Shown here one piece after another: positions 29,833-42,380 of a stretch of 64,000 nt of DNA (position 1 is the first letter of the stretch; every line of letters begins with the position of its first letter). Made by a program: the position numbers and the translations under genes. The notes under the pieces are model-generated. The model made no database searches. It saw nothing but the letters and a program-made list of their open reading frames with translations, and was not told where the DNA came from. The DNA is taken from assembly GCA_965197905.1 (NCBI GenBank), contig CBDAOB010000004.1:640001-704000 (forward strand), in the 5' to 3' direction. The DNA comes from Candidatus Latescibacterota bacterium. GTDB lineage: Bacteria > Latescibacterota > UBA2968 > UBA8231.

Positions 29833-31302
29833 CTACCTATTCTGTACCAACTCGTCGTTGTGCCAGTACCCCGACTTAGACTTCCCACTTGCCCGGTAGA
29901 TGGTGCCAGGGCCCTCCTTATATCCGTCGAACCACTGACCGACGTAGCGGCTTCCATCGGGCCAGGTGTAGGTGCCCTGTCCGTGCATGGCCCCTTCCCA
30001 CCAGTCGCCGGCATAGCGGTCGCCGGAGGTCCAGGTGTAGACCCCGTATCCATGTTCGTGGCCGAAGCGGTACTCGCCCTCGAAGCGGTTGCCATTCTTC
30101 CACATGAAAACACCGCGGCCATGTCGCTTCCCCTCCCGCCATTTGCCTTCGTAGCGGTTCCCGTTCGTCCAGACGAAACTGCCCTCTCCGTGGACCTTGC
30201 CCTCGGCCCAATCGCCGGTGTAGTAGTCCCCGGCTGCCAGCGTGAACGTGCCTTCCCCGTGGCGCTGGTCGTTTTGAAAGGCGCCGACGTAGGTGTCGCC
30301 ATTGTGCCAGGTGTAGGTGCCCTGCCCATGCAGCTTGTCATCCCAAAAATCCCCCACGTATCGATTCCCGTTGGACCACACGAAGATCCCCTTGCCATCG
30401 CGTTTTCCCGAGCGATAGCTGCCCTCGTAGCGATCGCCTGCGACGGTAGTAAACACCCCCTTGCCGTTCGATTTGTCGTTGCGCCATTCGCCGTCGAACT
30501 GGTCGCCGTTGATCCAGGTAAAGTGACCTTTGCCGTAACGTTGGTTCTCGCGCCAGTTTCCAACGTATTGATCCCCATTGTGCCAGGTAAGCGTACCCTG
30601 TCCATGGCGGTTGTCGTCGCGCCAGTCGCCTCGATATTCGTCGCGGTTGGACCAGGTCAGGGTACCGCTACCGTATCGCCGCCCATTGCGCCACTCGCCG
30701 GCGTACGTCTCACCGTTGGTCCAGGTAAAAATGCCCTGACCATGGGGTTGGTCGCTGCTCCAAGTGCCCTCGTAGGTGTCGCCGTTGTTCCACCAGTAAC
30801 TTCCCTGACCGTGGCGCAGGTCGGCATACCACTCCCCCCCATAGCTCTCACCCTGCGAGTTCTTAAATGTGCCCTCGCCGTGACGCTGTCCCAACCGCCA
30901 TGACCCGGAATACTCCGAACCGCTGACGTATCTGCGTTGTCCGTTGCCATGGGGCAACAAGCCGGTCTCGGCGGGGGGTCGCAGGCGGATCTCGCCGATG
31001 TAAGTTCCCTGCTCTGCCCAGACGACGCGGAATTCTCCCACCGCTTCCCCCTCTTCGAAGCGGCCGCTTGCTTCTTCCCCTTCTGGCAGCCAGCGATACG
31101 TCCCGGTCCCGTGGGGCAAACCGCGGACGAACTGGCCCTCGTACTCCTGCCGATTAAAGTAGAGCAACTTCCCAGCTCCGTGAGGCTGGCCGTCCTGGGT
31201 CTCGCCGCGATATTTCCCTTCCGGAAGGGTGAGGTGTTCTTCAGCTTCCAGAGGCGCACCTAGAATTAGCCCCAGCAGTGGAGCCCATTTCCACGTTGAC
31301 AT
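29833..31302 (-). CDS. Secreted MORN-repeat protein
   Basis: Signal peptide from ATG 31302, followed by a long tandem run of 23-aa YxGxWxxxxxHGxGxxxWxNG units. Confidence 0.92.
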   Translation of the reverse strand: MSTWKWAPLLGLILGAPLEAEEHLTLPEGKYRGETQDGQPHGAGKLLYFNRQEYEGQFVRGLPHGTGTYRWLPEGEEASGRFEEGEAVGEFRVVWAEQGTYIGEIRLRPPAETGLLPHGNGQRRYVSGSEYSGSWRLGQRHGEGTFKNSQGESYGGEWYADLRHGQGSYWWNNGDTYEGTWSSDQPHGQGIFTWTNGETYAGEWRNGRRYGSGTLTWSNRDEYRGDWRDDNRHGQGTLTWHNGDQYVGNWRENQRYGKGHFTWINGDQFDGEWRNDKSNGKGVFTTVAGDRYEGSYRSGKRDGKGIFVWSNGNRYVGDFWDDKLHGQGTYTWHNGDTYVGAFQNDQRHGEGTFTLAAGDYYTGDWAEGKVHGEGSFVWTNGNRYEGKWREGKRHGRGVFMWKNGNRFEGEYRFGHEHGYGVYTWTSGDRYAGDWWEGAMHGQGTYTWPDGSRYVGQWFDGYKEGPGTIYRASGKSKSGYWHNDELVQNR

Positions 31303-31403
31303 CGCTCGGTTCCCCGGTATATCTTTCCGCCCGAAAGGGTCTATATTCGGTAAATAACAGGATTGCAGAAAGCTGTCCACACTGAATCAGACAGATCGAT
31401 ACC

Positions 31404-32234: not shown

Positions 32235-32399
32235 CGGCCCGTGGCAAAAAGCCATTTGGGCTGCGGCCGGCTCTTGCAGCCGACCCCTTCGCTGTGCTCG
32301 GTCACCGCATCTTTCTGATGCGTCTTACTCTCACGCCTTGATCTCGGCCGCAATACGTCGGCCTCGCTCTTCAAAGCGCCTTTCACCACCGGCTGCTAG
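32231..32399. mobile_element. MITE-like non-autonomous element flanked by CTAG
   Basis: CTAG at 32231-32234 and 32396-32399. Imperfect terminal inverted repeats of about 22 bp, nested internal inverted repeats, no ORF. Confidence 0.65.
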
Positions 32400-33037
32400 G
32401 GCAGCTGCGCCGTCTCTACCTTGATGTAGTTCCCCGGAAACAACCTTCCTTCGACACTAACACCCTTGAAATGGGAACCCTGTCCCAGAAACAGGGCAAT
32501 CCCCTGGGGATCGGGCAGATAGTGATAGAGACTCCCGTCCTCTGCCTCCAGGTGATGCAAGTGTCCAAGCTTGCAGCTGTGCGGCAGATCGGCCACGTCT
32601 AGTCCACACTGACACTTGTTGGTACCAGCCAGGGTAATCTGCAACCCCGGGTCAGCGCGCAATCCCGCCAGATCGAGGTCCAGGGAAATCGTGTCCGATC
32701 TCTTCAGCTCGGCAATGTGCAGCAAGGCCCCACGCTTGAGCAGCTTCCCGGTGACGTGGACGACCGAGCCGGCCTGTAAATCCCCCAGCTTTTCGTCGTT
32801 TTCGGGAGTTTCGAGGAAGGAGTAGAGCCCACCAGCGGTGGCCAAGGCGCGGCCCGCGATGCCTTCCTTCTGGTCAGCGCCACCCTTGCTCGTGGCAGCG
32901 TGGAAGAACATCTCCATGTCGACGATCACCCCACCCTCGGCGAAATCGGTACTGACAGCGTTTCCGGCATCTTTGGTTGCCGCGCTGGCGGCTGTGAGTG
33001 GCAACATCATTCCGAGCAGTATTCCCCGTGCATTCAT
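32396..33037 (-). CDS. Secreted hypothetical protein with Cys/His cluster
   Basis: Signal peptide MNARGILLGMMLPLTAASA; CQCG...HSCKLGHLHH motif; GAGG RBS before ATG 33037. Confidence 0.7.
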   Translation of the reverse strand: MNARGILLGMMLPLTAASAATKDAGNAVSTDFAEGGVIVDMEMFFHAATSKGGADQKEGIAGRALATAGGLYSFLETPENDEKLGDLQAGSVVHVTGKLLKRGALLHIAELKRSDTISLDLDLAGLRADPGLQITLAGTNKCQCGLDVADLPHSCKLGHLHHLEAEDGSLYHYLPDPQGIALFLGQGSHFKGVSVEGRLFPGNYIKVETAQLP

Positions 33038-33217
33038 GACATCCTCTTGGTCGCGATAGTTCGTTCGGTAAAGGTGTGAGGTGAATATCACATGTTTGAT
33101 CCTTTTTGCCAACGACTCGTGAAGCACCTCGGATCAGAATCGCTGCATCGTCCGTCGACCCACCTCTGAGATCCTCGACCTATCTGGTTACAACGCCGGA
33201 AAGGTACGGTCTTTGCG

Positions 33218-34447
33218 ATGATTCTCTCCGGAGAAAACGCCAATCACACAGACAACAGACCTCAGGGCATAGTGATATCTAGAGAGGATCCGGATCAGCA
33301 CCAGATTGTTCTCAGCGGCAAGGGGTTTCGGTTTGTCCGCGGTTTTCTCGGACTGATCGTGCTTCTCGCGGTCGTACTCGTCATCTCCACTCTCGTCATG
33401 AGTTGGAAGTTCGGTATGAACGTCACTGTTGAAGGAAAAGGTGTGGTAGAACCGGTTGACCGCCTTTGGGTCAAGGCACCCCTCAACGGACTCGTTGAGC
33501 GGATCCTCGCCAGGCAGGGTCAGCTTGTTGCAGAGAACGATACCGTGGTCGTGTTGGATACCACGGAACAGCTCGCCGAGATCCGGAAGTTGCAGAATGA
33601 CTTGGAGATCAACCGGAGCCGCAGACTGGAGCTAAAGCTGGAAATCGATCAGGAGGGCAGGGTAGGTGCTGCCAATCTACGAGGCGCGCATACGGACCTG
33701 GCGCGGGCACGGATGGAACTAGCACATGTACTCGCCGAGCAAAGATTGAGCTCGAATGGCGCAGCGATGTTCGCCAGAAAACCGATGGAAGAGCTTATCC
33801 CGGTTCAGAAGAGCCAGGCTCGGCTCGATAAGGCGTTGGCTGACTTGGACCTAGCGAAGAAACGGGGTTTCGTCGATCGCCGAAATCAGGAACTCGAAAC
33901 TCTTTTCAAACTGGGCGAAAAGCTGCGTCACGAGCTCGAAACCATCGCTCGAAGGATCGAGCGGAGCACGGTAACCGCAGGAATTGCCGGAGTGGTGCTC
34001 ACCGGTGATTTGTACCGACGGGTAGGCGACCGCGTGGTGGCTGGAGAGACCATTCTGGAGATCGCCAAGCTCAACCACTGGCAGGCCGAACTTGGAATTG
34101 CCGAACACGACATTCCACGGGTTAAGCCCGGCCAACGAACGCTTCTATACGTAAACGCCTTTCCTCACCTGGAGTTCAAGATATTCGAAGGGACCGTCAG
34201 CCACGTTCCCTCGGCCCCTGGTCCGGCCGTCGCCGGAGTGTCAGAAGGGTATCCGGTGAAAATTGGCGTAAAGAACCCACACGTTACCGATGGAATTGCG
34301 AAATACCGATTAGTTCCGGGAATGCGGGTGGAAGGATCCATCGTCGTGGAGCGCGCCCGGATTCTGGGAATCTTGTGGAAGCGGCTCCTGAAAGCGAGCG
34401 GGAAGCTGGAGAAGAAGAATGAACTTCAACTGCTGGACCCAGTATGA
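33218..34447 (+). CDS. HlyD-family periplasmic adaptor / secretion protein
   Basis: Single N-terminal TM, GKGVVEP, VKAPLNG lipoyl half-motifs, long coiled coil, DIPRVKPGQ, LVPGM. Confidence 0.9.
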   Translation: MILSGENANHTDNRPQGIVISREDPDQHQIVLSGKGFRFVRGFLGLIVLLAVVLVISTLVMSWKFGMNVTVEGKGVVEPVDRLWVKAPLNGLVERILARQGQLVAENDTVVVLDTTEQLAEIRKLQNDLEINRSRRLELKLEIDQEGRVGAANLRGAHTDLARARMELAHVLAEQRLSSNGAAMFARKPMEELIPVQKSQARLDKALADLDLAKKRGFVDRRNQELETLFKLGEKLRHELETIARRIERSTVTAGIAGVVLTGDLYRRVGDRVVAGETILEIAKLNHWQAELGIAEHDIPRVKPGQRTLLYVNAFPHLEFKIFEGTVSHVPSAPGPAVAGVSEGYPVKIGVKNPHVTDGIAKYRLVPGMRVEGSIVVERARILGILWKRLLKASGKLEKKNELQLLDPV

Positions 34448-36159
34448 GCAACTTGCTTCGCATGGTGTCGTTGTTGAAGCCATACTGGCGCTACCTTGGT
34501 CAGTCACTTGTCGTCGGAATATTGATCATGATGCTGCAGCTGCCGGGACCGTACATGACCAAAATCCTCGTAGACGATGTCTATCCGCAAGGTGACGAAT
34601 CACTCCTCTGGTGTATCCTGATCCTGGGATCCGTCATGACGATGGGGCTCGGACTCACCAATCTTTTGAGCGGATACTTCGGACAGTTCGTAGGCGTTCA
34701 CATGGGACTCGATTTTCAATCACGGTTCTATCGACACATTCAGTCCCTCGATTTCGGATTCTTCGACCAGCGGGAGACCGGAGCTATCATCTCCAGATTC
34801 GACGACATGTACCAGTCGATCACAAGTGTTATTCAGATAGTCAACTCGTTCGTCATGAACCTGCTGCAGTGCCTCATTTTTCCCCCGATCCTCCTGTTGA
34901 TCAATTGGAAGTTGGCGCTGGTAAGCATTGCCGTCCTGCCTCTCGACACCATTCTCGTGGTAACCACGAGAAAATACTTCAAGAGTCTGTCGGAACGCTT
35001 GGCTCAACGGTCCGCTGAATTGAATGCGCGCCAGTATGAATCGCTCAATGGTATCCGAGCAGTACAAGCGTTGGGGTTGGAATCGAGCTTCTATGTGAAA
35101 ATGGTCCATCTATTGAGCGCGGTGACAGACCTGCAACTTCGATCGGCTCTCTTGCAGGGAGGCACGAACTTCGTTGCAACGAGCATAAGAGCAGGCGGCA
35201 CATTCGCATACGGAATCTACGGATGGACCCAGGTTCTGGAGGGCCATCTTTCGCTCGGTTCGTATCTCGCATTCTCCGGCTATGTAGGATTCTTGTACGG
35301 ACCCATCGGGAATCTCGTAGGGCTTCTCGGACGCGTCGAGGTAACCCTCGTCCACGTAAATCGGTTTCTCGAGTTGTACGACCTGCGCCCATCCATATAC
35401 GACGAGCCCAACCAGAAACGGCTGGGAAGAGTGCGTGGACAGATTTGCTTTGAGGGCGTGAGCTTCTCCTACGATGGCAGGACGATGATCTTGCAGGAGA
35501 TTGGGCTCACCGTGCCCTCCGGATCGACACTCGCCCTCGTTGGTAGAAGCGGAACGGGCAAGTCGACCCTGGCCAAACTGGTCCCACGATTCTACGATCC
35601 AACGTCCGGCACTGTTACCGTCGACGGCGAGGACGTTCGCAACGTCCGTCTGAAATATCTGAGGGAAAACGTCACCTACTCGCTGCAGGGTAACAACATT
35701 TTCCATGGAACGGTGTTGGAGAATCTGACCTTTGGGCGTCCACTGTCGGAAGCCACCGTAAAAGAGGCAGCCCGCAAAGCACACATCCACGATACCATTG
35801 CTGCGCTGCGCGATGGATACGAGAGCCACGTGGGTGAACAGGGTGTGCAGCTATCCGAGGGAGAGCGGCAGCGCCTGGTGTTGGCGAGAATCCTGTTGCT
35901 CGATTCGCCCATCGTTATCCTCGATGAACCGACCTCGGCGCTCGATATGGAATCCGAATACCTCGTTCACGAGGCGCTCGGCAATCTCAAGAGAGATCGC
36001 ACCCTGATCGTTATCGCCCACAAGATTTCGACGATTCGAAGTGCGGACGAGATCGCTGTTTTGGACGGAGGAAGAATCGTAGAGAGGGGGGATCACAGCC
36101 AGCTGGTGAAGGCAGATGGATTGTATTCTCGGATGAACCAACTATCGGCAACGTTGTAG
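34444..36159 (+). CDS. ABC exporter (TMD+NBD), no C39 peptidase domain
   Basis: TM domain begins at the N-terminus. Walker A GRSGTGKS, signature LSEGERQR, Walker B IVILDE, H-loop IAH. ATGA overlap with the HlyD gene. Confidence 0.93.
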   Translation: MSNLLRMVSLLKPYWRYLGQSLVVGILIMMLQLPGPYMTKILVDDVYPQGDESLLWCILILGSVMTMGLGLTNLLSGYFGQFVGVHMGLDFQSRFYRHIQSLDFGFFDQRETGAIISRFDDMYQSITSVIQIVNSFVMNLLQCLIFPPILLLINWKLALVSIAVLPLDTILVVTTRKYFKSLSERLAQRSAELNARQYESLNGIRAVQALGLESSFYVKMVHLLSAVTDLQLRSALLQGGTNFVATSIRAGGTFAYGIYGWTQVLEGHLSLGSYLAFSGYVGFLYGPIGNLVGLLGRVEVTLVHVNRFLELYDLRPSIYDEPNQKRLGRVRGQICFEGVSFSYDGRTMILQEIGLTVPSGSTLALVGRSGTGKSTLAKLVPRFYDPTSGTVTVDGEDVRNVRLKYLRENVTYSLQGNNIFHGTVLENLTFGRPLSEATVKEAARKAHIHDTIAALRDGYESHVGEQGVQLSEGERQRLVLARILLLDSPIVILDEPTSALDMESEYLVHEALGNLKRDRTLIVIAHKISTIRSADEIAVLDGGRIVERGDHSQLVKADGLYSRMNQLSATL

Positions 36160-36204
36160 AAAGACCTCGGGGAGCTGATCGACACCACATCAAAGGAGAG
36201 AGCA

Positions 36205-36564
36205 ATGAGAACGTTGATTAAACGAAGGCCGAAGTCTTATAGTGGAATGGACTGCAAGGTTAGTGCCTATGGATCTGAGGATGGAGGATTCTTGGGCTCG
36301 ATGAGAGCTCTGGCTGACAGCGTCTTCAGCGGTGGGACTGTGGCTACGGACACCTTCAGCGTAGGTGCCGTTAGCGCACACTACACGGTCACTTCTCCAA
36401 TCAAGATCACGCCCACGAGTGCTACCTTTTCGGGACCTCTTCCCGTAAGTGTCGGAGTAAGCATAGCTCCGTCCACGACAAGCCAAGGTCCAACTCCAGG
36501 ACCAGATAGCTCGATAAACGGGGTAGGGACCTATAGTGCAGTCGCCGACGAAACCCGGCGTTAA
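36205..36564 (+). CDS. Putative precursor peptide / secreted substrate (basic leader ending VSAY, Ser/Thr/Gly/Pro-rich core)
   Basis: Strong RBS AAAGGAG 5' of the ATG. It is the only small non-enzyme ORF between the exporter and the proteases. Leader MRTLIKRRPKSYSGMDCKVSAY. Confidence 0.65.
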   Translation: MRTLIKRRPKSYSGMDCKVSAYGSEDGGFLGSMRALADSVFSGGTVATDTFSVGAVSAHYTVTSPIKITPTSATFSGPLPVSVGVSIAPSTTSQGPTPGPDSSINGVGTYSAVADETRR

Positions 36565-36702
36565 TCGAAGTAAATCTTGGCTTATTGAAGACTGATTGAA
36601 CGGTGTCGAAGCTCCTCGAGGTCGGTCTTAGGTTGTCGACAGTGACGTAAAGTGGGCGCGGCTAGACTTCTGAGAACACTCAACTGCAGCGAGAGACCGA
36701 GA

Positions 36703-37452
36703 ATGGCGAGAAGTGTGAGTTGGCCGAAAGATGTGGACATATCCTTCCTTCGTGGAATGGTACTGCTGGTGGTCTTGTTCTTCGTGCCGCACCTAGTTCT
36801 TGACGCCTCGTTCAGAATGGGATTTCCAAACAACGTGGCAACCGTCAAGCACAGTATCGAGATGGCCCTCATCTATACTGTAGTCCTCGCAGTTGTTCTA
36901 GTTACGCTGAAGCTAGTTGGCCAGATCTCCATCGTGCCCTTCTTGCAGGTGAAGACTCTACTGCCTTCGGAGTTACTCGTTTGCGTATCCTTTGCAGCCT
37001 TGTTCGGCTTCTTTCAATTTTATGCTAGCGTTCCGTACGGAAGGCTGCTTCCAGATGTAGACTACATTCTTTTCTTTTTGGCGGGGCTCCTGGTACACTC
37101 TGTGCTATGGCCTCTGATTGAAGAGGTTATTTTTCGAGGTGTCGCGTTCGTCGCGCTGTTCAACTATAGCAAGAGCCGCCTCACGGCGTACTTGGGATCG
37201 ACCTTCCTGTTTACGATCTTCCACGCGCCTTCTCTTCCGAATCTCTTCCTTCACGCAACTACGGGTCTATCGAACGCACACCTGATCCTCATCGTCTCCT
37301 TCTCGTTTTTTGCAGCCTTTATATATGAACGGACGGGGAAACTCATGCTGTGCGTGCTGGCCCACGGTGTCGTCAACGGCATGGAGTTCCTTGGTGTCAT
37401 TGTTGGTTACATAGTCGATTTTCCGCTTCCAGAGGACGGACCGGGCAACTAA
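36703..37452 (+). CDS. CPBP (Abi/CAAX type II) intramembrane glutamic protease
   Basis: EEVIFRG, FTIFH and AHGVVN motifs; polytopic. Start uncertain (GTG 36652 or ATG 36703). Confidence 0.88.
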   Translation: MARSVSWPKDVDISFLRGMVLLVVLFFVPHLVLDASFRMGFPNNVATVKHSIEMALIYTVVLAVVLVTLKLVGQISIVPFLQVKTLLPSELLVCVSFAALFGFFQFYASVPYGRLLPDVDYILFFLAGLLVHSVLWPLIEEVIFRGVAFVALFNYSKSRLTAYLGSTFLFTIFHAPSLPNLFLHATTGLSNAHLILIVSFSFFAAFIYERTGKLMLCVLAHGVVNGMEFLGVIVGYIVDFPLPEDGPGN

Positions 37453-37453
37453 G

Positions 37454-39397
37454 ATGTCGAACGCTTTTGCTGGTCTCACTGGCGCCGGCACCAGAGTCGC
37501 GGTAGTCGATAGCGGGGTCGACTTCTCCCATCCGAAAATCGATGGCGCTCCATCGGGAGTCGGACTCCGATACGACGGGGGAAGGGTCGTCGAATCCGGC
37601 AACTTCGACGACGTTGTGGGTCACGGCACCGCGTGCGCCGGAATCGTAAGGAAAAGAGCTCCCGAAACAGACCTGATATCAGTCCGAATATTCGACACTT
37701 CACTGCAAACCCACGGACACAACCTGGTTGCCGCGATACGGTGGTGTCTCGAACACCACATCGATGTCGTGAATCTAAGCCTTGGAACGACCGACCTAGA
37801 TTTCCGGGATGTCCTTTTCGATGCCTGTCAAGAGGCGTTGGACGGCAAGGTACTGATCGTCGCAGCTCACAACAATGAAGAACAGGAGAGTTTCCCAGCC
37901 GTGTTTTCGAATGTCATCGGCGTCACTGCAGGTCGATTTTCCGATTCCAAAGCATACCGCTATCGACCGTTGAACCGCGTTGAATGTGTAGCTCATGGTG
38001 ACCTGCAGCGGGTCTGCTGGTTGAACTCGCGGGAGCTGCTCGTACGGGGGACGAGCTATGCAGCCGCCCATGTTTCGGGGATCGTCGCTCTGCTTCGCCA
38101 GGCCCATCCCCACTGTGACCTGAGTCGGATTCGTGAAGTTCTGATGAGACACGCGGCTCGGAAAGACAGCACCGTTTCAGAACGGGAAGACACGTTACCC
38201 CTGCTCGACGCCAGAAGAATCGGAAAGCGGATCCATCCTGTTCGTGTAGAGCTTCAGCCCATAAAGGCTGCGCTTTACCCGTACAACAAGGAGATGCACG
38301 CTTTCGTGCGTTATCCCGAGCTGATCGATTTCGAGGTTACAGGAGTCGCCGATCCTGCCGGCAAGGGCCTCGTGGGAAAGGATGCGGGTGAGGCGATCGG
38401 TGTCGGCGCGACGGGTGTACGCATCGCATCGCGACTCATCGACGCTCTGACGGACGCAGACACCTTGATTCTGGGATATGTCGACGAGCTGGGACGCATC
38501 TCAGGACGCGACTTCCTGCGTGAATCAGTTCAGACCGCGCTAGACAACGGCCTGAACGTATTCAGCTTCGTCCCGCTCCCGTTTGAGGGTTATGAGGACC
38601 TGCACCATTCGGCGCGAATGAAAAACCTGAAAATCACCTATCCCTGGGTTGCCCCAGACGCGTTACAAACCGCCATCGAGGATCCCAACAGATATGATCG
38701 GGTCCAGATCCCTGTGCTGGCAGTATGCGGCACCGGTCCCCAACAGGGCAAATTTACAGTGCAATTGGCGCTGCGCAGATCCCTATTGAGTATGGGATTC
38801 CGGGTGGGTCAACTGGGAACCGAACATCACAGCGAGCTCTTCGGTTTTGATGCGGCGTTTCCCATGGGTTATGCCTCTCCCCTGGCGATGCCGGTACAAC
38901 TTTTTGTGCCCTTTCTCGATTTCACAATGCGGGAGATCGCGCACGTCGGTAAACCTGATATCCTCATTGCCGGCTCGCAATCCGGCACGATACCGTATGA
39001 TATCGGTCTTCCGGACACACATACCCTGGCATCCATCGCTTTTCTTTTCGGTGTCAAACCGGATGGCTGCGTGCTTGTTGTGAACTCCATCGACTCTTAC
39101 GCCTATATACGCGACACCATAGCCGCCATTAAGGCCTTGGCCAAGGTCCCAACCGTGCTGCTGGCCATGAGCGACAAGGAGAAGAATGTTCAGAGCGCGT
39201 ACGGTCGCACGTGGATAAAACCCCGACAGTTGAGTAGGACAGAGATTTCGGATCGCCTGCGAAATTTGGAGGATAGCTTCTCGCTACCTGCTTTTGAGAT
39301 ATCGGATGGACACAGCCAACGCAGCATGACAGATGCGATAGTAAAGTACTTCACAGAAAGCGGTCCTGAGGATCCATGTCTGACAGCAGCGGCCTAA
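37454..39397 (+). CDS. S8 subtilisin-like protease fused to DUF1611/TIGR04066-like domain
   Basis: Catalytic triad VVDSG, HGTACAG, GTSYAA; no signal or pro-peptide. The C-terminal half has YPYNKE, GTGPQQGKFTVQL P-loop-like motif, GQLGTE, GSQSG and PDGCVLVVN. Confidence 0.85.
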   Translation: MSNAFAGLTGAGTRVAVVDSGVDFSHPKIDGAPSGVGLRYDGGRVVESGNFDDVVGHGTACAGIVRKRAPETDLISVRIFDTSLQTHGHNLVAAIRWCLEHHIDVVNLSLGTTDLDFRDVLFDACQEALDGKVLIVAAHNNEEQESFPAVFSNVIGVTAGRFSDSKAYRYRPLNRVECVAHGDLQRVCWLNSRELLVRGTSYAAAHVSGIVALLRQAHPHCDLSRIREVLMRHAARKDSTVSEREDTLPLLDARRIGKRIHPVRVELQPIKAALYPYNKEMHAFVRYPELIDFEVTGVADPAGKGLVGKDAGEAIGVGATGVRIASRLIDALTDADTLILGYVDELGRISGRDFLRESVQTALDNGLNVFSFVPLPFEGYEDLHHSARMKNLKITYPWVAPDALQTAIEDPNRYDRVQIPVLAVCGTGPQQGKFTVQLALRRSLLSMGFRVGQLGTEHHSELFGFDAAFPMGYASPLAMPVQLFVPFLDFTMREIAHVGKPDILIAGSQSGTIPYDIGLPDTHTLASIAFLFGVKPDGCVLVVNSIDSYAYIRDTIAAIKALAKVPTVLLAMSDKEKNVQSAYGRTWIKPRQLSRTEISDRLRNLEDSFSLPAFEISDGHSQRSMTDAIVKYFTESGPEDPCLTAAA

Positions 39398-39690
39398 CAC
39401 TTCGAGTAAAGACGACCATTGTAGTAGCTCTAAAACTCGAAATCGAGCCGGATCAGATAGCGGACGACGAGATCCTTTTTGAAGCGGGATTGGGGGTGGA
39501 CTCCGTCGCCATGATGGAACTCATCGTCGCCCTTGAAAACGAATTCGAGGTAGAATTCAGTGATGAGCTGATACGTATCGAGAACTTCGAATCCGTAGAT
39601 TCGATCGTTAAGTTGCTTGTTCCACTTTTGGAAGATTCCAGGATGGAGAAGGAGCCATGTTCCGCTCAAACCCAAAACGAGAATTTCTAA
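39376..39690 (+). CDS. Stand-alone acyl carrier protein
   Basis: Acidic small protein with LGVDSVAMMELIVALENEF phosphopantetheinylation motif. Confidence 0.92.
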   Translation: MSDSSGLTLRVKTTIVVALKLEIEPDQIADDEILFEAGLGVDSVAMMELIVALENEFEVEFSDELIRIENFESVDSIVKLLVPLLEDSRMEKEPCSAQTQNENF

Positions 39691-42380
39691 ATATTGAGTT
39701 GATGACAGACCCGGCGGCCAGAGATTGCCTCGAAGACATCCTGGCGTCTGTGATTTCCTGGTGGGGGCGTCGGTACGAACTGATGTTTGCGTCATCCTGG
39801 AGTTTCGATTTCAAACCGGGCCCAGGCGAGTTGGTGGGCCCCCGCCTTGATGCGGAGATATCCCCTGCCCTGGATCTGTTGGAGACTCACCATGGTATAA
39901 GAGTATCATTTGGAACGAGGCCGGTCGGGACCGACCTGTTTGCACTCGTTTTGAAGGAGATCCGCGGCGGACGTCCTGTCCTTCTCAGCCGAAGCCACCG
40001 CTCCGTGGCTGATCCTGGCTCAATCCCGCAGTTCGTCCTAGTCCTTGGATTTGACTATCTCCGCCAGGTCCTGTTCTATCGAGCCGCGGATGTGCGGGGC
40101 GCAACTACCCGGCAGGAAGGTTCCGTGCATGCCTTGCCACACAAAGAGCTGGGAGATTGGTCCGGTCCACACGCCACCTTTTCTGTCGGTGGCAACGGTG
40201 CAGCCACCTTGGATTGGCGACAGATTCTGCGGGATGCTGCTTTGCGGTTTCACGATCGCGATGGATCCGAGCACCGCTTCGTGATGATGGCGTCGTTTGC
40301 TCGGGAGATCGGCAGCATGGACATCAAAGCCGAGATACATGGGCATCAGAATCGGTATTGGGTGCCGCTTTTCTATAACCTCCGTCGAATTTCCCAGGGC
40401 CGTATTCAATTTGCATCGCTACTAAGGTTTCTCGAAGCACGATTCGATCTGCGGGAGATATCGGAAATATTGAGCGACTTCCAGAATGCGGGTCGCTCAT
40501 GGCAACTGGTTCGCAGTCTGATGATTAAATACTCACTGACTGTCGACGATCGTGCCTTGCTGAATCGAATCTCCACGCGAATTCTCGATATTGCAACAAC
40601 CGAGCAACAGCTAGCCGAAAAACTCATCCTGCTTGTCGACCGCGATAGATCCCGCGTAAGGAGCGATACGGCAAAACCGCCCGCACGTGATGAGCAGGAG
40701 ATGCGCACTGTTTCATCCATTCCCCGCCAGGAGGAAGGTTATGTCGCACCTCGATCGGCAATCGAGATATGCCTCGTGAGGATTTGGGAGCACGTGCTGG
40801 GGATGGAGAAAGTGGGTATTCTGGATAACTTTTTTGAGCTTGGGGGCGACTCACTGCTCGGCTTGAAGATCCTTGCCCAAATGCACAGAGCTGGATTGGA
40901 GATTGACGCTGGACAGATATACCAGCGTCAAACCATCAAGGAATTGGCAGCCGTGACCGGGATGAATACCTGCAGTGATACCGCTCAAGACCCCGAGACC
41001 GGTTCGATGCCCTTTCTTCCTCTACAGTACAAAGGCATTTCGGAGGATGGTCCCAACTACGGACTTGAAGGCGCTGTCAAATTCTACGCTCCGACGGTTC
41101 ACCATCTGACATCCGATCAGCTTGATCAGGTTGCCAATCGGCTGATGGCTCATCACGACGCTCTTCGGCTTCGATTCCCCCGTAATTTCGAGGACCGGCG
41201 CCCGACATTCTGTGAAACCTCGAGCGACTCTAGATGTTGGCAGTGGATCGACCTATCCGACGACCATCATTTGGACAGATCGGACATCCTGGACAGCGCT
41301 CCGGAGAAGGCGCGTTCTGTCATCGATCTGCACACCGGTCCTCTATTCGTGCTGCTGTATTTAAAAACGCCGTCGCACATGAAAAATGTTCTATGCATGT
41401 GCATCCATCACGTCGTTTCCGACGCCATCTCCAATGGAATTCTGGAAGAAGACATTCTGTCCCTTGCAGGTCAGGCAGCGGGGCACAGGAAGTTTCGTTT
41501 ACCTCGCAAGACGACCTCGATTAAGCAATGGTCCCACATGTTGTCCAACTACGCGCGATCTCCCGATACAAGAGAGGTCGACTATTGGAAGTGCAGACCA
41601 TGGGGCAAGATTCGCCCGATCCTGCCGGATCGCTGCGATGAGTCGTCAGTCGATCTTGGGAAGCTAATCACGGCCGATTTGACCGTGGGCGAGCGGATGA
41701 CCCGATCGCTTTTCAGCACCTGCCGGACGCTGAGCATTACCATTCACGAACTCTTGATAACCGGCCTGGCCAGAACCCTCGCCGGCTGGAGCGGATCGGA
41801 TGTGGTTCTCATAGAGCACATACATCACGGCAGAGATCCCGTTTTCGAAGGCACGGATTTGTCGCGAACCGTCGGTTTCTTTTCGCTCGAGGTTCCCGTG
41901 GTCCTGGAGTTGCCCGCGGCCAGCGGTCCCGAGGCCTTGCTCCAGGCAGTTTCCTCACAGATCCGCAACCTGCCGGCAAAAGGCATTGGCTACAGCCTGC
42001 TTCGTTACCTTTCGAAAGAGGAAGATATCGTCCGGTTCCTTGAGTCTATTCCTACCTATCAGGCGCGGTACAACGCCGTGATCGAACCCCATCTGGGCGA
42101 TCAAACGGCGGCTTGCGAAACCGATGGAAGCTGGGACGTCGAGTACTACGAAACTTCGATCTCGCCAGCCCGAATCGGTGCGACGTCATTCACCCTGGAA
42201 AACAAGCCGAGAATGGAGAAGAGGTGTCTCGTTCTGCCTCTCAGATTCGGACAAAAAGGACTCTTCTACAAGGAGACCGTGGCAAGAGTGGTCGACTCCT
42301 ACACGGACTGTCTGGAAAGATTCGCGGGACTTGGCCATGGTTTTCAATCCATGAAACCACGACTCAGAGAATGTGCGTGA
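39657..42380 (+). CDS. BtrH-like domain + PCP + condensation/epimerization-like domain (NRPS-like, no adenylation domain)
   Basis: N-terminus DCLE...YELMFASSWSF...GRPVLL...VLVLGFD resembles BtrH-N. PCP: YVAPRS..E..L..IW..VLG...DNFFELGGDSL. C/E motifs: HHDALRL, HHVVSDAIS, HGRD, LSRTVGFFS, PAKGIGY. RBS AAGGAG. Confidence 0.8.
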   Translation: MFRSNPKREFLNIELMTDPAARDCLEDILASVISWWGRRYELMFASSWSFDFKPGPGELVGPRLDAEISPALDLLETHHGIRVSFGTRPVGTDLFALVLKEIRGGRPVLLSRSHRSVADPGSIPQFVLVLGFDYLRQVLFYRAADVRGATTRQEGSVHALPHKELGDWSGPHATFSVGGNGAATLDWRQILRDAALRFHDRDGSEHRFVMMASFAREIGSMDIKAEIHGHQNRYWVPLFYNLRRISQGRIQFASLLRFLEARFDLREISEILSDFQNAGRSWQLVRSLMIKYSLTVDDRALLNRISTRILDIATTEQQLAEKLILLVDRDRSRVRSDTAKPPARDEQEMRTVSSIPRQEEGYVAPRSAIEICLVRIWEHVLGMEKVGILDNFFELGGDSLLGLKILAQMHRAGLEIDAGQIYQRQTIKELAAVTGMNTCSDTAQDPETGSMPFLPLQYKGISEDGPNYGLEGAVKFYAPTVHHLTSDQLDQVANRLMAHHDALRLRFPRNFEDRRPTFCETSSDSRCWQWIDLSDDHHLDRSDILDSAPEKARSVIDLHTGPLFVLLYLKTPSHMKNVLCMCIHHVVSDAISNGILEEDILSLAGQAAGHRKFRLPRKTTSIKQWSHMLSNYARSPDTREVDYWKCRPWGKIRPILPDRCDESSVDLGKLITADLTVGERMTRSLFSTCRTLSITIHELLITGLARTLAGWSGSDVVLIEHIHHGRDPVFEGTDLSRTVGFFSLEVPVVLELPAASGPEALLQAVSSQIRNLPAKGIGYSLLRYLSKEEDIVRFLESIPTYQARYNAVIEPHLGDQTAACETDGSWDVEYYETSISPARIGATSFTLENKPRMEKRCLVLPLRFGQKGLFYKETVARVVDSYTDCLERFAGLGHGFQSMKPRLRECA

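Follow-up and report, generated by a model that had tools for sequence, protein, structure and literature searches.

Introduction

What kind of product is made from a small gene whose first 22 codons resemble the leader of a peptide precursor and whose remaining codons specify a protein-sized stretch with no cysteine? We study this question on a 64,000-nucleotide stretch of a Candidatus Latescibacterota genome (the window), in which an initial annotation had read the ORF at 36205-36564 as a precursor with a leader of the CLI_3235 type and a small protein as cargo. The CLI_3235/CcpM system of Bacillota, of which the SacP23 cluster is an example, combines a TIGR04065 precursor with TIGR04066, a TIGR04068 radical SAM protein, a TIGR04069 ACP-like protein and an S8 protease. 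This parent TIGR04066/DUF1611 peptide maturation system is already catalogued in NCBIfam; in the literature that we could search, which lay mostly outside the subscription journals, we found no paper establishing the chemistry of the system and none describing a form that lacks radical SAM and has protein-sized cargo. Our best reading, to which we give about an even chance, is that the window ORF is the precursor of such a form: an operon of the CLI_3235/TIGR04066 lineage, free of radical SAM, in which a leader would direct the maturation and export of a folded mini-protein.

Substitution patterns mark the small ORF as a coding gene

The ORF and its parts are as follows, with residues after the predicted cut counted from +1, so that Glu25 is Glu+3.

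36193-36198, + strand: ribosome-binding site (RBS) AAGGAG, 6 nt 5' of the ATG, identical in the L022 orthologue
36205-36564, + strand: precursor ORF, 119 codons, ATG start; the first 22 residues are the leader, followed by a 97-residue core
36205-36270, + strand: leader, residues 1-22; basic L-x-K-[RP] block, variable middle, V-x-A-Y end (here V-S-A-Y)
36268-36279, + strand: Tyr22-x-x-Glu25 motif across the predicted cut
36289-36327, + strand: amphipathic helix, residues 29-41; conserved hydrophobic i/i+3/i+4 pattern, helix in both low-confidence models
36337-36465, + strand: conserved beta-rich domain, residues 45-87; alternating hydrophobic faces, strands in the models (pLDDT about 47)
36469-36564, + strand: variable S/P/G-rich tail, residues 89-119, and stop codon

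The composition is as first described: the RBS is strong, the 22-residue leader is basic (charge +5), and the 97-residue core (charge -3) has no cysteine and consists to 62% of S, T, G, V and P, with Ser and Thr making up 30%. The sole cysteine of the ORF, at leader position 17, is unconserved when the orthologue and relatives are compared. No Pfam or NCBIfam model matches the 119-residue ORF.

The evidence for translation comes from a second genome of the same genus (G002, locus L022), where the orthologue is 94% identical and gene order is kept. The two cores differ by 20 synonymous and 4 non-synonymous substitutions (dN/dS 0.059, p 1.6e-9 by Fisher's test); of the other five frames over the core, four lie at dN/dS 1.0-4.6 and one antisense frame at 0.20. 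In this comparison every operon gene shows purifying selection (dN/dS 0.11-0.26), with the core below every one of its neighbours, and the leader, at 0.30 on few sites, is freer than the core. As judged from this pattern of sequence evolution, the ORF at 36205-36564 is a real protein-coding gene. Contigs of four runs, of which X1 may be the source of this DNA, span the ORF, and the differences listed are substitutions with no indel inside it; no RNA data set was listed as containing it. Promoter and terminator scans gave signals at or below chance, and scans of metagenome contigs found no locus.

The core is a conserved small domain by its alignment

Profile searches, reaching down to about 30% identity, give a cargo family of 22 sequences (about 20 of them distant relatives), found in 4 of 168 genomes of the phylum. 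Every member has the leader, Glu+3, the amphipathic helix, the beta-rich region and the variable tail. Within the beta-rich domain D49, T50, S64, P65, G77 and G84 are invariant, and in distant relatives residues 23-88 keep 31-57% identity against 5-52% for the tail. On this alignment evidence the core is a conserved small domain and not a hypervariable peptide. Two AlphaFold2 models, the second built with the 22 sequences, both place a helix and strands here, at pLDDT 46.6 and 46.8.

Searches for a known fold ended without a match. Foldseek with the first model returned nothing at E 0.001, a result that is not meaningful at a pLDDT of about 47; Pfam gave no match below E 0.016 for any of the 22 family members, and the ESM Atlas held no usable match for the core. 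That no fold or toxin family can be recognised in the core counts against our best reading. Comparison with other cargo groups did not show homology (hhalign 1.6% for the G004/G020 precursors and 5.7% for the L114 group, with no BLAST link), and a 3493-aa Calx-beta repeat protein (E 4e-4) was set aside, since its match probably reflects composition. Of 7998 candidates none is a longer, fused form of the cargo, which is weak evidence.

A packed operon with protease, carrier and exporter

The precursor is the third gene of a packed run on the + strand, with gaps of -4, 45, 87, 1, -22 and -34 nt between successive genes. Its neighbours in the run are:

33218-34447, + strand: HlyD-type membrane fusion protein (MFP); Pfam HlyD_D23/HlyD_3
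34444-36159, + strand: ABC exporter; its only domains are ABC_membrane (23-287) and ABC_tran, with no C39 peptidase
36652-37452, + strand: CPBP/Rce1-like intramembrane protease, putatively for immunity or second processing; PF02517, E 2e-14
37454-39397, + strand: fusion of an S8 protease with a DUF1611/TIGR04066-like domain, 647 aa, predicted cytoplasmic; P-loop-like motif in the DUF1611 part
39376-39690, + strand: acyl carrier protein (ACP), serine intact (Ser43)
39657-42380, + strand: 907-aa fusion of a BtrH-like domain (about 1-335), a PCP (373-432) and an epimerisation-type domain

The ORFs of 33218-42380 include no radical SAM match. The operon (33001-42000 of the window) has a G+C content of 0.52-0.57 per kb against 0.58-0.62 in its flanks, which fits its patchy presence among relatives. 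Two ORFs on the opposite strand lie upstream: a 243-aa ORF (32396-33127, - strand), divergent from the operon, with no Pfam match, a predicted signal-like N-terminal stretch and a Cys/His motif, for which an ORF of similar size occupies the same place in L022; and a 515-aa MORN-repeat protein with 15 scored repeats (29833-31380, - strand).

The S8 catalytic residues D19, H57 and S201 are invariant in 24 of 24 aligned homologues, and with the Asp already at residue 19 there is no room for a signal or pro-peptide in the S8 domain. TIGR04066 aligns with the DUF1611 part over positions 2-360 of its 361 (131 bits), a clear homologue below the cut-off of 200. An alignment of homologues, from which the Firmicute and proteobacterial rows L134 and L142 are left out (A9), contains a near-invariant G-T-x4-G-K-x-T motif in the DUF1611 domain. 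The closest named relatives of this domain are in Candidatus Latescibacterota genomes, and its profile matches PDB 2G0T (E 3.7e-9) and, weakly, 7XRJ (E 0.0046), which we take to be the glutamate N-acetyltransferase DgcN. The CPBP protein carries EExxxR, FxxxH and AHxxxN motifs, and the ACP serine is kept in 51 of 51 aligned carriers.

The 907-aa protein had been read as supplying a condensation domain. Its last domain does have a PF00668 match and an intact HHxxxD. Together with the PCP, however, it aligns with PCP-epimerisation didomains, at 185 bits to the first PvdL stretch with TycA and GrsA next, as against 24 bits to a true C domain of PvdL. By best solved relatives and by motifs the domain is of the epimerisation type, and the test for an amide-forming C domain did not bear out the condensation reading. 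At the catalytic Glu position it has Ile (Met in G004 and G020). The BtrH_N/DUF4872-like domain at the N-terminus has an Atlas score of 0.95, measured on part of the protein.

How the carrier would be charged is a weak point. A carrier-loading enzyme is not evident in the operon, and no NRPS adenylation domain exceeds the TIGR01733 cut-off in the host genome, both of which count against our best reading. The genome encodes one phosphopantetheinyl transferase, three carrier domains (two in the operon) and one condensation-family domain.

The cargo also occurs in split cassettes

In two further genomes the parts of the operon are separated. G032 has the order MFP-ABC-precursor-CPBP about 1 Mb from its S8-DUF1611/ACP genes, and a leader ORF was not found next to the latter; G144 has ABC-precursor-CPBP on one contig and MFP-S8-DUF1611-ACP, with no precursor, on another. 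These complementary halves support a functional link that acts in trans. Because they add up to the operon minus the 907-aa gene, they also show that this gene is not needed next to this cargo. Fusions of the 907-aa type occur in 6 of the 168 phylum genomes and were not found in G032 or G144; four of the six adjoin S8-DUF1611 and a Cys-free core about 100 aa long, and two (G097 and G109) are in regions without an S8-DUF1611 match. At L150 the fusion is near a 1573-aa protein with two carrier domains.

At four loci (window, L022, L174 and L175) a CPBP gene comes after the precursor. Across 34 precursor regions, which are kin and not independent, CPBP accompanies 15 of 20 long cores against 1 of 14 short ones, and the window-type MFP 16 of 20 against 0 of 14; other MFP types occur beside short cores.

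One leader recurs on unrelated cores

If the leader is a recognition element, it should recur where the processing enzyme recurs. A search with S8-DUF1611 through 61 related genomes gives many full-length homologues, often several per genome, and we examined 60 regions around the strongest of them (two of these regions overlap and share one gene), with a motif scan and then with profiles. Small ORFs with a strong RBS and M-x-x-L-x-K...V-x-A-Y are present in 42 of the 60 regions, mostly in Latescibacterota; a look at small ORFs next to TIGR04066-like genes had been proposed as a check on the leader. The first 32 leaders were chosen by eye from 65 motif matches, and another set of 68 loci holds further leader ORFs. 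Within the window's cargo family K6 and Y22 are invariant in 20 of 20 members and A21 is present in 19.

The cores behind the leader differ widely. Among 76 leader ORFs they are 25 to 138 residues long and form 33 groups without a BLAST link, and the same leader elsewhere carries helical, Cys-rich and acidic cores. In 49 of the 76 the core is at least 75 aa long and in 33 of these it is Cys-free, so that the leader with a long Cys-free cargo, first described for this single ORF, is a recurring type. RiPP precursors in general combine a conserved leader with variable cores next to a dedicated protease, and this pattern is found here with the S8 triad intact.

How strongly the window leader stands out depends on the comparison set. 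With a profile of 31 leaders, the orthologue left out, the ORF ranks first among 37,622 RBS-anchored N-termini of the genome (20.1 bits, the next at 11.4). With a stricter profile of 20 leaders less than 35% similar (the 12 most similar left out), it scores 5.6 bits, lies outside the top 9 and is equalled by 9 of 5000 shuffles; this sharp fall once similar leaders are left out counts against our best reading. The suggestion that the genome might hold further copies of the leader found no support: 301,650 starts yielded none (E 1.4 for the best of the others), with a profile that included the window leader and so tests only for further copies.

An ACP is beside S8-DUF1611 in 49 of the 60 regions, and a BtrH-like gene is present in 31. 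In the other 11 regions no ACP was found, several of them still with a leader ORF, a point against our best reading. Taken as a whole, gene context strongly supports the view that the leader would be the recognition tag of the S8-DUF1611 system.

Some regions depart from the common layout. At L030, L040, L054, L058, L064, L065 and L074 no leader ORF was found near S8-DUF1611/ACP, and these are candidate enzymes for distant precursor cassettes. G060, G047 and G045 have three to eight S8-DUF1611 genes per genome, with differing cargo types, and some S8-DUF1611 regions add GNAT, glycosyltransferase or TPR genes.

A glutamate beyond the predicted cut

Conservation does not end at Tyr22. Glu+3 is present in 20 of 20 members of the window's cargo family and in 61 of the 76 leader ORFs, and is the majority residue in 24 of the 33 unrelated core groups. 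Later leaders were found with profiles that took in these positions, and the unbiased figure is therefore that of the 32 leaders picked blind to +3: Glu+3 in 23, whereas only 27 have it of the 581 genome N-termini that share the V-x-A-Y-like motif. Counted in either register, Y-x-x-E is present in 72 of 84 leader ORFs, in 597 of 33,030 genome controls (1.8%) and in 1 of 17 TIGR04065 members; the 12 leader ORFs without it count against our best reading.

The residue at +1, on the other hand, varies among Ser, Glu, Gly, His, Asn and Asp across the 76 leader ORFs, which also counts against our best reading. Gly+1, offered initially as the acyl acceptor, is present in only 4 of 20 family members, so that the proposal is not supported on this point. 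Since +1 is variable whereas +3 is Glu, the recognition element would span the predicted cut as V-x-A-Y-x-x-E. Some leaders (..I-Y-G-Y-E, ..V-Y-A-Y-E) allow two cut registers, a further point against our best reading.

The register is ambiguous at L061, L062, L063, L066 and L068, where there is no ACP, the leaders end I-Y-G-Y-E and the cores are short and contain Cys. Three loci (L073:14588-14911, L075:1428-1751 and L076:3615-3938) have Cys-free 85-aa cores without Glu+3, no ACP was found there, and their DUF1611 is more diverged (30-34%). They hint that Glu+3 and the carrier were lost together, and being near-identical they count as one event.

Likeness to CLI_3235 and other known systems

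The leader had been called CLI_3235-like, and this stands for the motif, L-x-K...hydrophobic-x-A-Y/F, and falls for membership of TIGR04065. At the TIGR04065 cut-off of 26 bits neither the ORF nor any of 43 leader ORFs matches, and a search of the genome at E 10 gives nothing. We collected 17 true members above the cut-off, which come from 7 of 300 Clostridia-class genomes; their leaders read M-K-K-L-G-K-K...T-V-E-A-Y, with 3-7 Cys each and mostly Cys at +2/+3 instead of Glu. An HMM of these 17 leaders gives the window leader -1.5 bits (rank 7534), which counts against our best reading, and in a two-block motif matrix with free spacer, built from the same members, the ORF comes 54th of 37,622, with 33 of 60 leader ORFs among the top 0.1%. 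The view of the ORF as a leader-plus-cargo precursor of a TIGR04066-like cluster is borne out, and its leader motif is that of the 17 true members. From the sequences compared, the leader would work like a CLI_3235 leader and probably shares its origin, and the protein is not a member of the family.

At the level of the cluster, the leader pattern L-x-K...[VIL]-x-A-[YF], a TIGR04066-like domain, a carrier, a subtilase and an ABC transporter are shared with the CLI_3235/CcpM system. Unlike that system, the operon lacks the TIGR04068 radical SAM protein, has a canonical ACP serine, has S8 fused to DUF1611 and has Glu at +3; its core is 97 aa, Cys-free and predicted to be folded, against about 30-55 aa and Cys-rich; and it adds genes for the HlyD-type MFP, CPBP and BtrH-PCP-epimerase, with all three NCBIfam models below cut-off. 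The operon ACP scores 18.1 bits against TIGR04069 (cut-off 70) and better as an ordinary ACP. The one studied product of the CLI_3235 family, SacP23, is described in PMC10731318 as antibacterial, blocked to Edman degradation and lighter by 1 kDa than expected from loss of the leader alone. In this lineage, then, processing can involve more than a single cut, which counts against our best reading.

A related precursor at L080:6635-6793 (+ strand), of the FlmA/DD(I/V)LF type (NF052472, 28.3 bits, cut-off 30), has a V-x-A-Y leader and lies among genes for radical SAM, S8-DUF1611, ACP and an S41 peptidase. The cleavage site of DD(I/V)LF/FlmA precursors is stated as unknown in PMC12703449, which also names selidamides, and the L080 sequence suggests one for this orphan family. 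The window protein is unlike this family, with no NF052472 match, no DD(I/V)LF end and no arginase or radical SAM partner.

Three other comparisons bear on what the operon might do. Butirosin BtrI/BtrH perform carrier-to-amine acyl transfer, and DgcN is a glutamate N-acetyltransferase. The operon resembles the first in its stand-alone ACP adjoining a BtrH-like domain (BtrH_N also occurs in neighbours of homologous regions) and the second in the DUF1611 fold relatives 2G0T and 7XRJ; it differs from both in that the group would go to the N-terminus of a protein instead of an aminoglycoside or free glutamate, and it has no BtrJ-like loading enzyme. Lipolanthines, lipoavitides and selidamides are N-acylated RiPPs, and leader-directed acylation of a ribosomal peptide would be the outcome here too; unlike these, the operon has no GNAT, FabH-like, PKS or lanthionine synthetase gene and its cargo is protein-sized. 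Type I-secreted bacteriocins and microcins can have CPBP (Abi) immunity proteins. The order of ABC, MFP, small cargo and CPBP genes is like theirs, whereas the leader ends A-Y with no double-glycine, C39 is missing and a separate cytoplasmic S8 would cut the leader.

Proposed mechanism and its alternatives

Our best reading can be divided into steps of unequal strength. That the ORF makes a conserved, translated protein (from sequence evolution) and that its leader would be the tag of the S8-DUF1611 system (from gene context) are jointly very probable. The cytoplasmic S8 domain would then probably cut after Tyr22: subtilisins prefer a hydrophobic residue at P4 and an aromatic one at P1, and V-x-A-Y is conserved. 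Somewhat short of an even chance is the next step, in which the DUF1611 domain would move a group borne by the holo-ACP onto the N-terminal amine that the cut exposes; the BtrH-like domain could act as a shuttle without being essential, and Glu+3 would position the N-terminus. The last and weakest step, which we hold tentatively, is that the 97-aa product would leave through the ABC-MFP exporter and act outside, where a membrane-active antibacterial role is the likeliest and the CPBP protein would confer immunity.

We favour this reading because of the dN/dS values, the packing of the operon, the leader on 33 unlinked core groups and its presence in 42 of 60 regions; because of the S8 triad, the ACP serine, the BtrH-like gene and the matches to 2G0T and 7XRJ; and because of the Glu+3 enrichment, the complementary halves in G144, the association of long cores with CPBP and MFP, and SacP23 as an antibacterial, Edman-blocked product.

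The main rival is that Glu25 is the residue that reacts, which we regard as unlikely. The N-terminus would be trimmed to Glu25 and its alpha-amine acylated in the manner of DgcN, or DUF1611 would activate the Glu25 side chain for an ATP-dependent amide or ester, for example to a carrier-borne amine or to Tyr22. The excess of Y-x-x-E over genome controls and TIGR04065 members, the near-invariant G-T-x4-G-K-x-T motif and the homology to 7XRJ all speak for it; yet a conserved P3' residue can be a mere protease-recognition element and is absent in 12 of 84 leader ORFs, while the match to 7XRJ, which would be DgcN, is weak. Next comes cutting and export with no covalent modification, in our view improbable, where the leader would only route the cargo to S8 and the exporter, and the ACP, BtrH-like and PCP-epimerase parts would be passengers or serve another product. 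In G032 and G144 the same cargo family lies in cassettes made up of (MFP-)ABC-precursor-CPBP alone, the BtrH-PCP-E fusion was found in six genomes that do not include these two, and 11 regions have no ACP found, as this would have it. But G032 and G144 both hold S8-DUF1611 with ACP elsewhere, the ACP accompanies S8-DUF1611 in 49 regions with its serine kept, and purifying selection acts on all operon genes.

Acylation of the N-terminal Gly or of Ser/Thr hydroxyls of the core by a condensation domain, as first annotated, now appears very improbable: the PF00668 match, the intact HHxxxD, the high Ser/Thr content and the invariant T50 and S64 would suit it, but the domain aligns with PCP-epimerisation didomains, Gly+1 is in the minority in the family and two genomes that carry this cargo did not yield the fusion. 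About as improbable, finally, is a cargo that is a structural or adhesive beta-rich subunit, polymerising or oligomerising after leader removal, or a pro-peptide or inhibitor acting in trans on the pro-less S8. A core more conserved than the enzymes, strictly alternating hydrophobic strands with invariant Gly and Pro, and monomer models that stay below pLDDT 50 even with 22 sequences are what such a subunit or inhibitor would predict; against this, the helical, Cys-rich and acidic cores behind the same leader are more like competing toxins, and a CPBP gene follows the precursor in four loci. In subtilisin pro-peptides the corresponding motif is at the C-terminus, unlike the A-Y near the N-terminus of this precursor.

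Beyond the best reading we can formulate a more general, and somewhat unlikely, version: a leader-programmed acylation and secretion pathway in which any polypeptide of 25-140 residues behind L-x-K...V-x-A-Y-x-x-E would be cut by S8, given a carrier-borne acyl or aminoacyl group by a DUF1611 that reads Glu+3, and exported. Latescibacterota would use it, in cis and in trans, to deploy unrelated mini-protein effectors, and the helix/beta family of the window would be an unknown fold or a pore-forming oligomer.

Discussion

The locus adds to the catalogued system evidence of selection, a defined cargo family, the Glu+3 element, split cassettes and an epimerase-type reading of the 907-aa gene. With radical SAM and cysteines gone, the carrier serine usable, and protease, DUF1611, carrier and one precursor in a single operon, the role of DUF1611 and the carrier on the peptide becomes directly addressable by co-expression, and the conserved Glu+3 is a concrete residue for mutation. 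If a DUF1611 enzyme does read Glu+3, this would be a chemistry undescribed for RiPPs, and a leader tolerant of unrelated protein-sized cargo would be a tool for site-specific N-terminal modification of proteins. For the organisms themselves, the locus points to a little-studied bacterial pathway that may trim, probably modify and export protein-sized products, and the cargo set would be a so far unexplored reservoir of mini-proteins secreted by members of an uncultured phylum.
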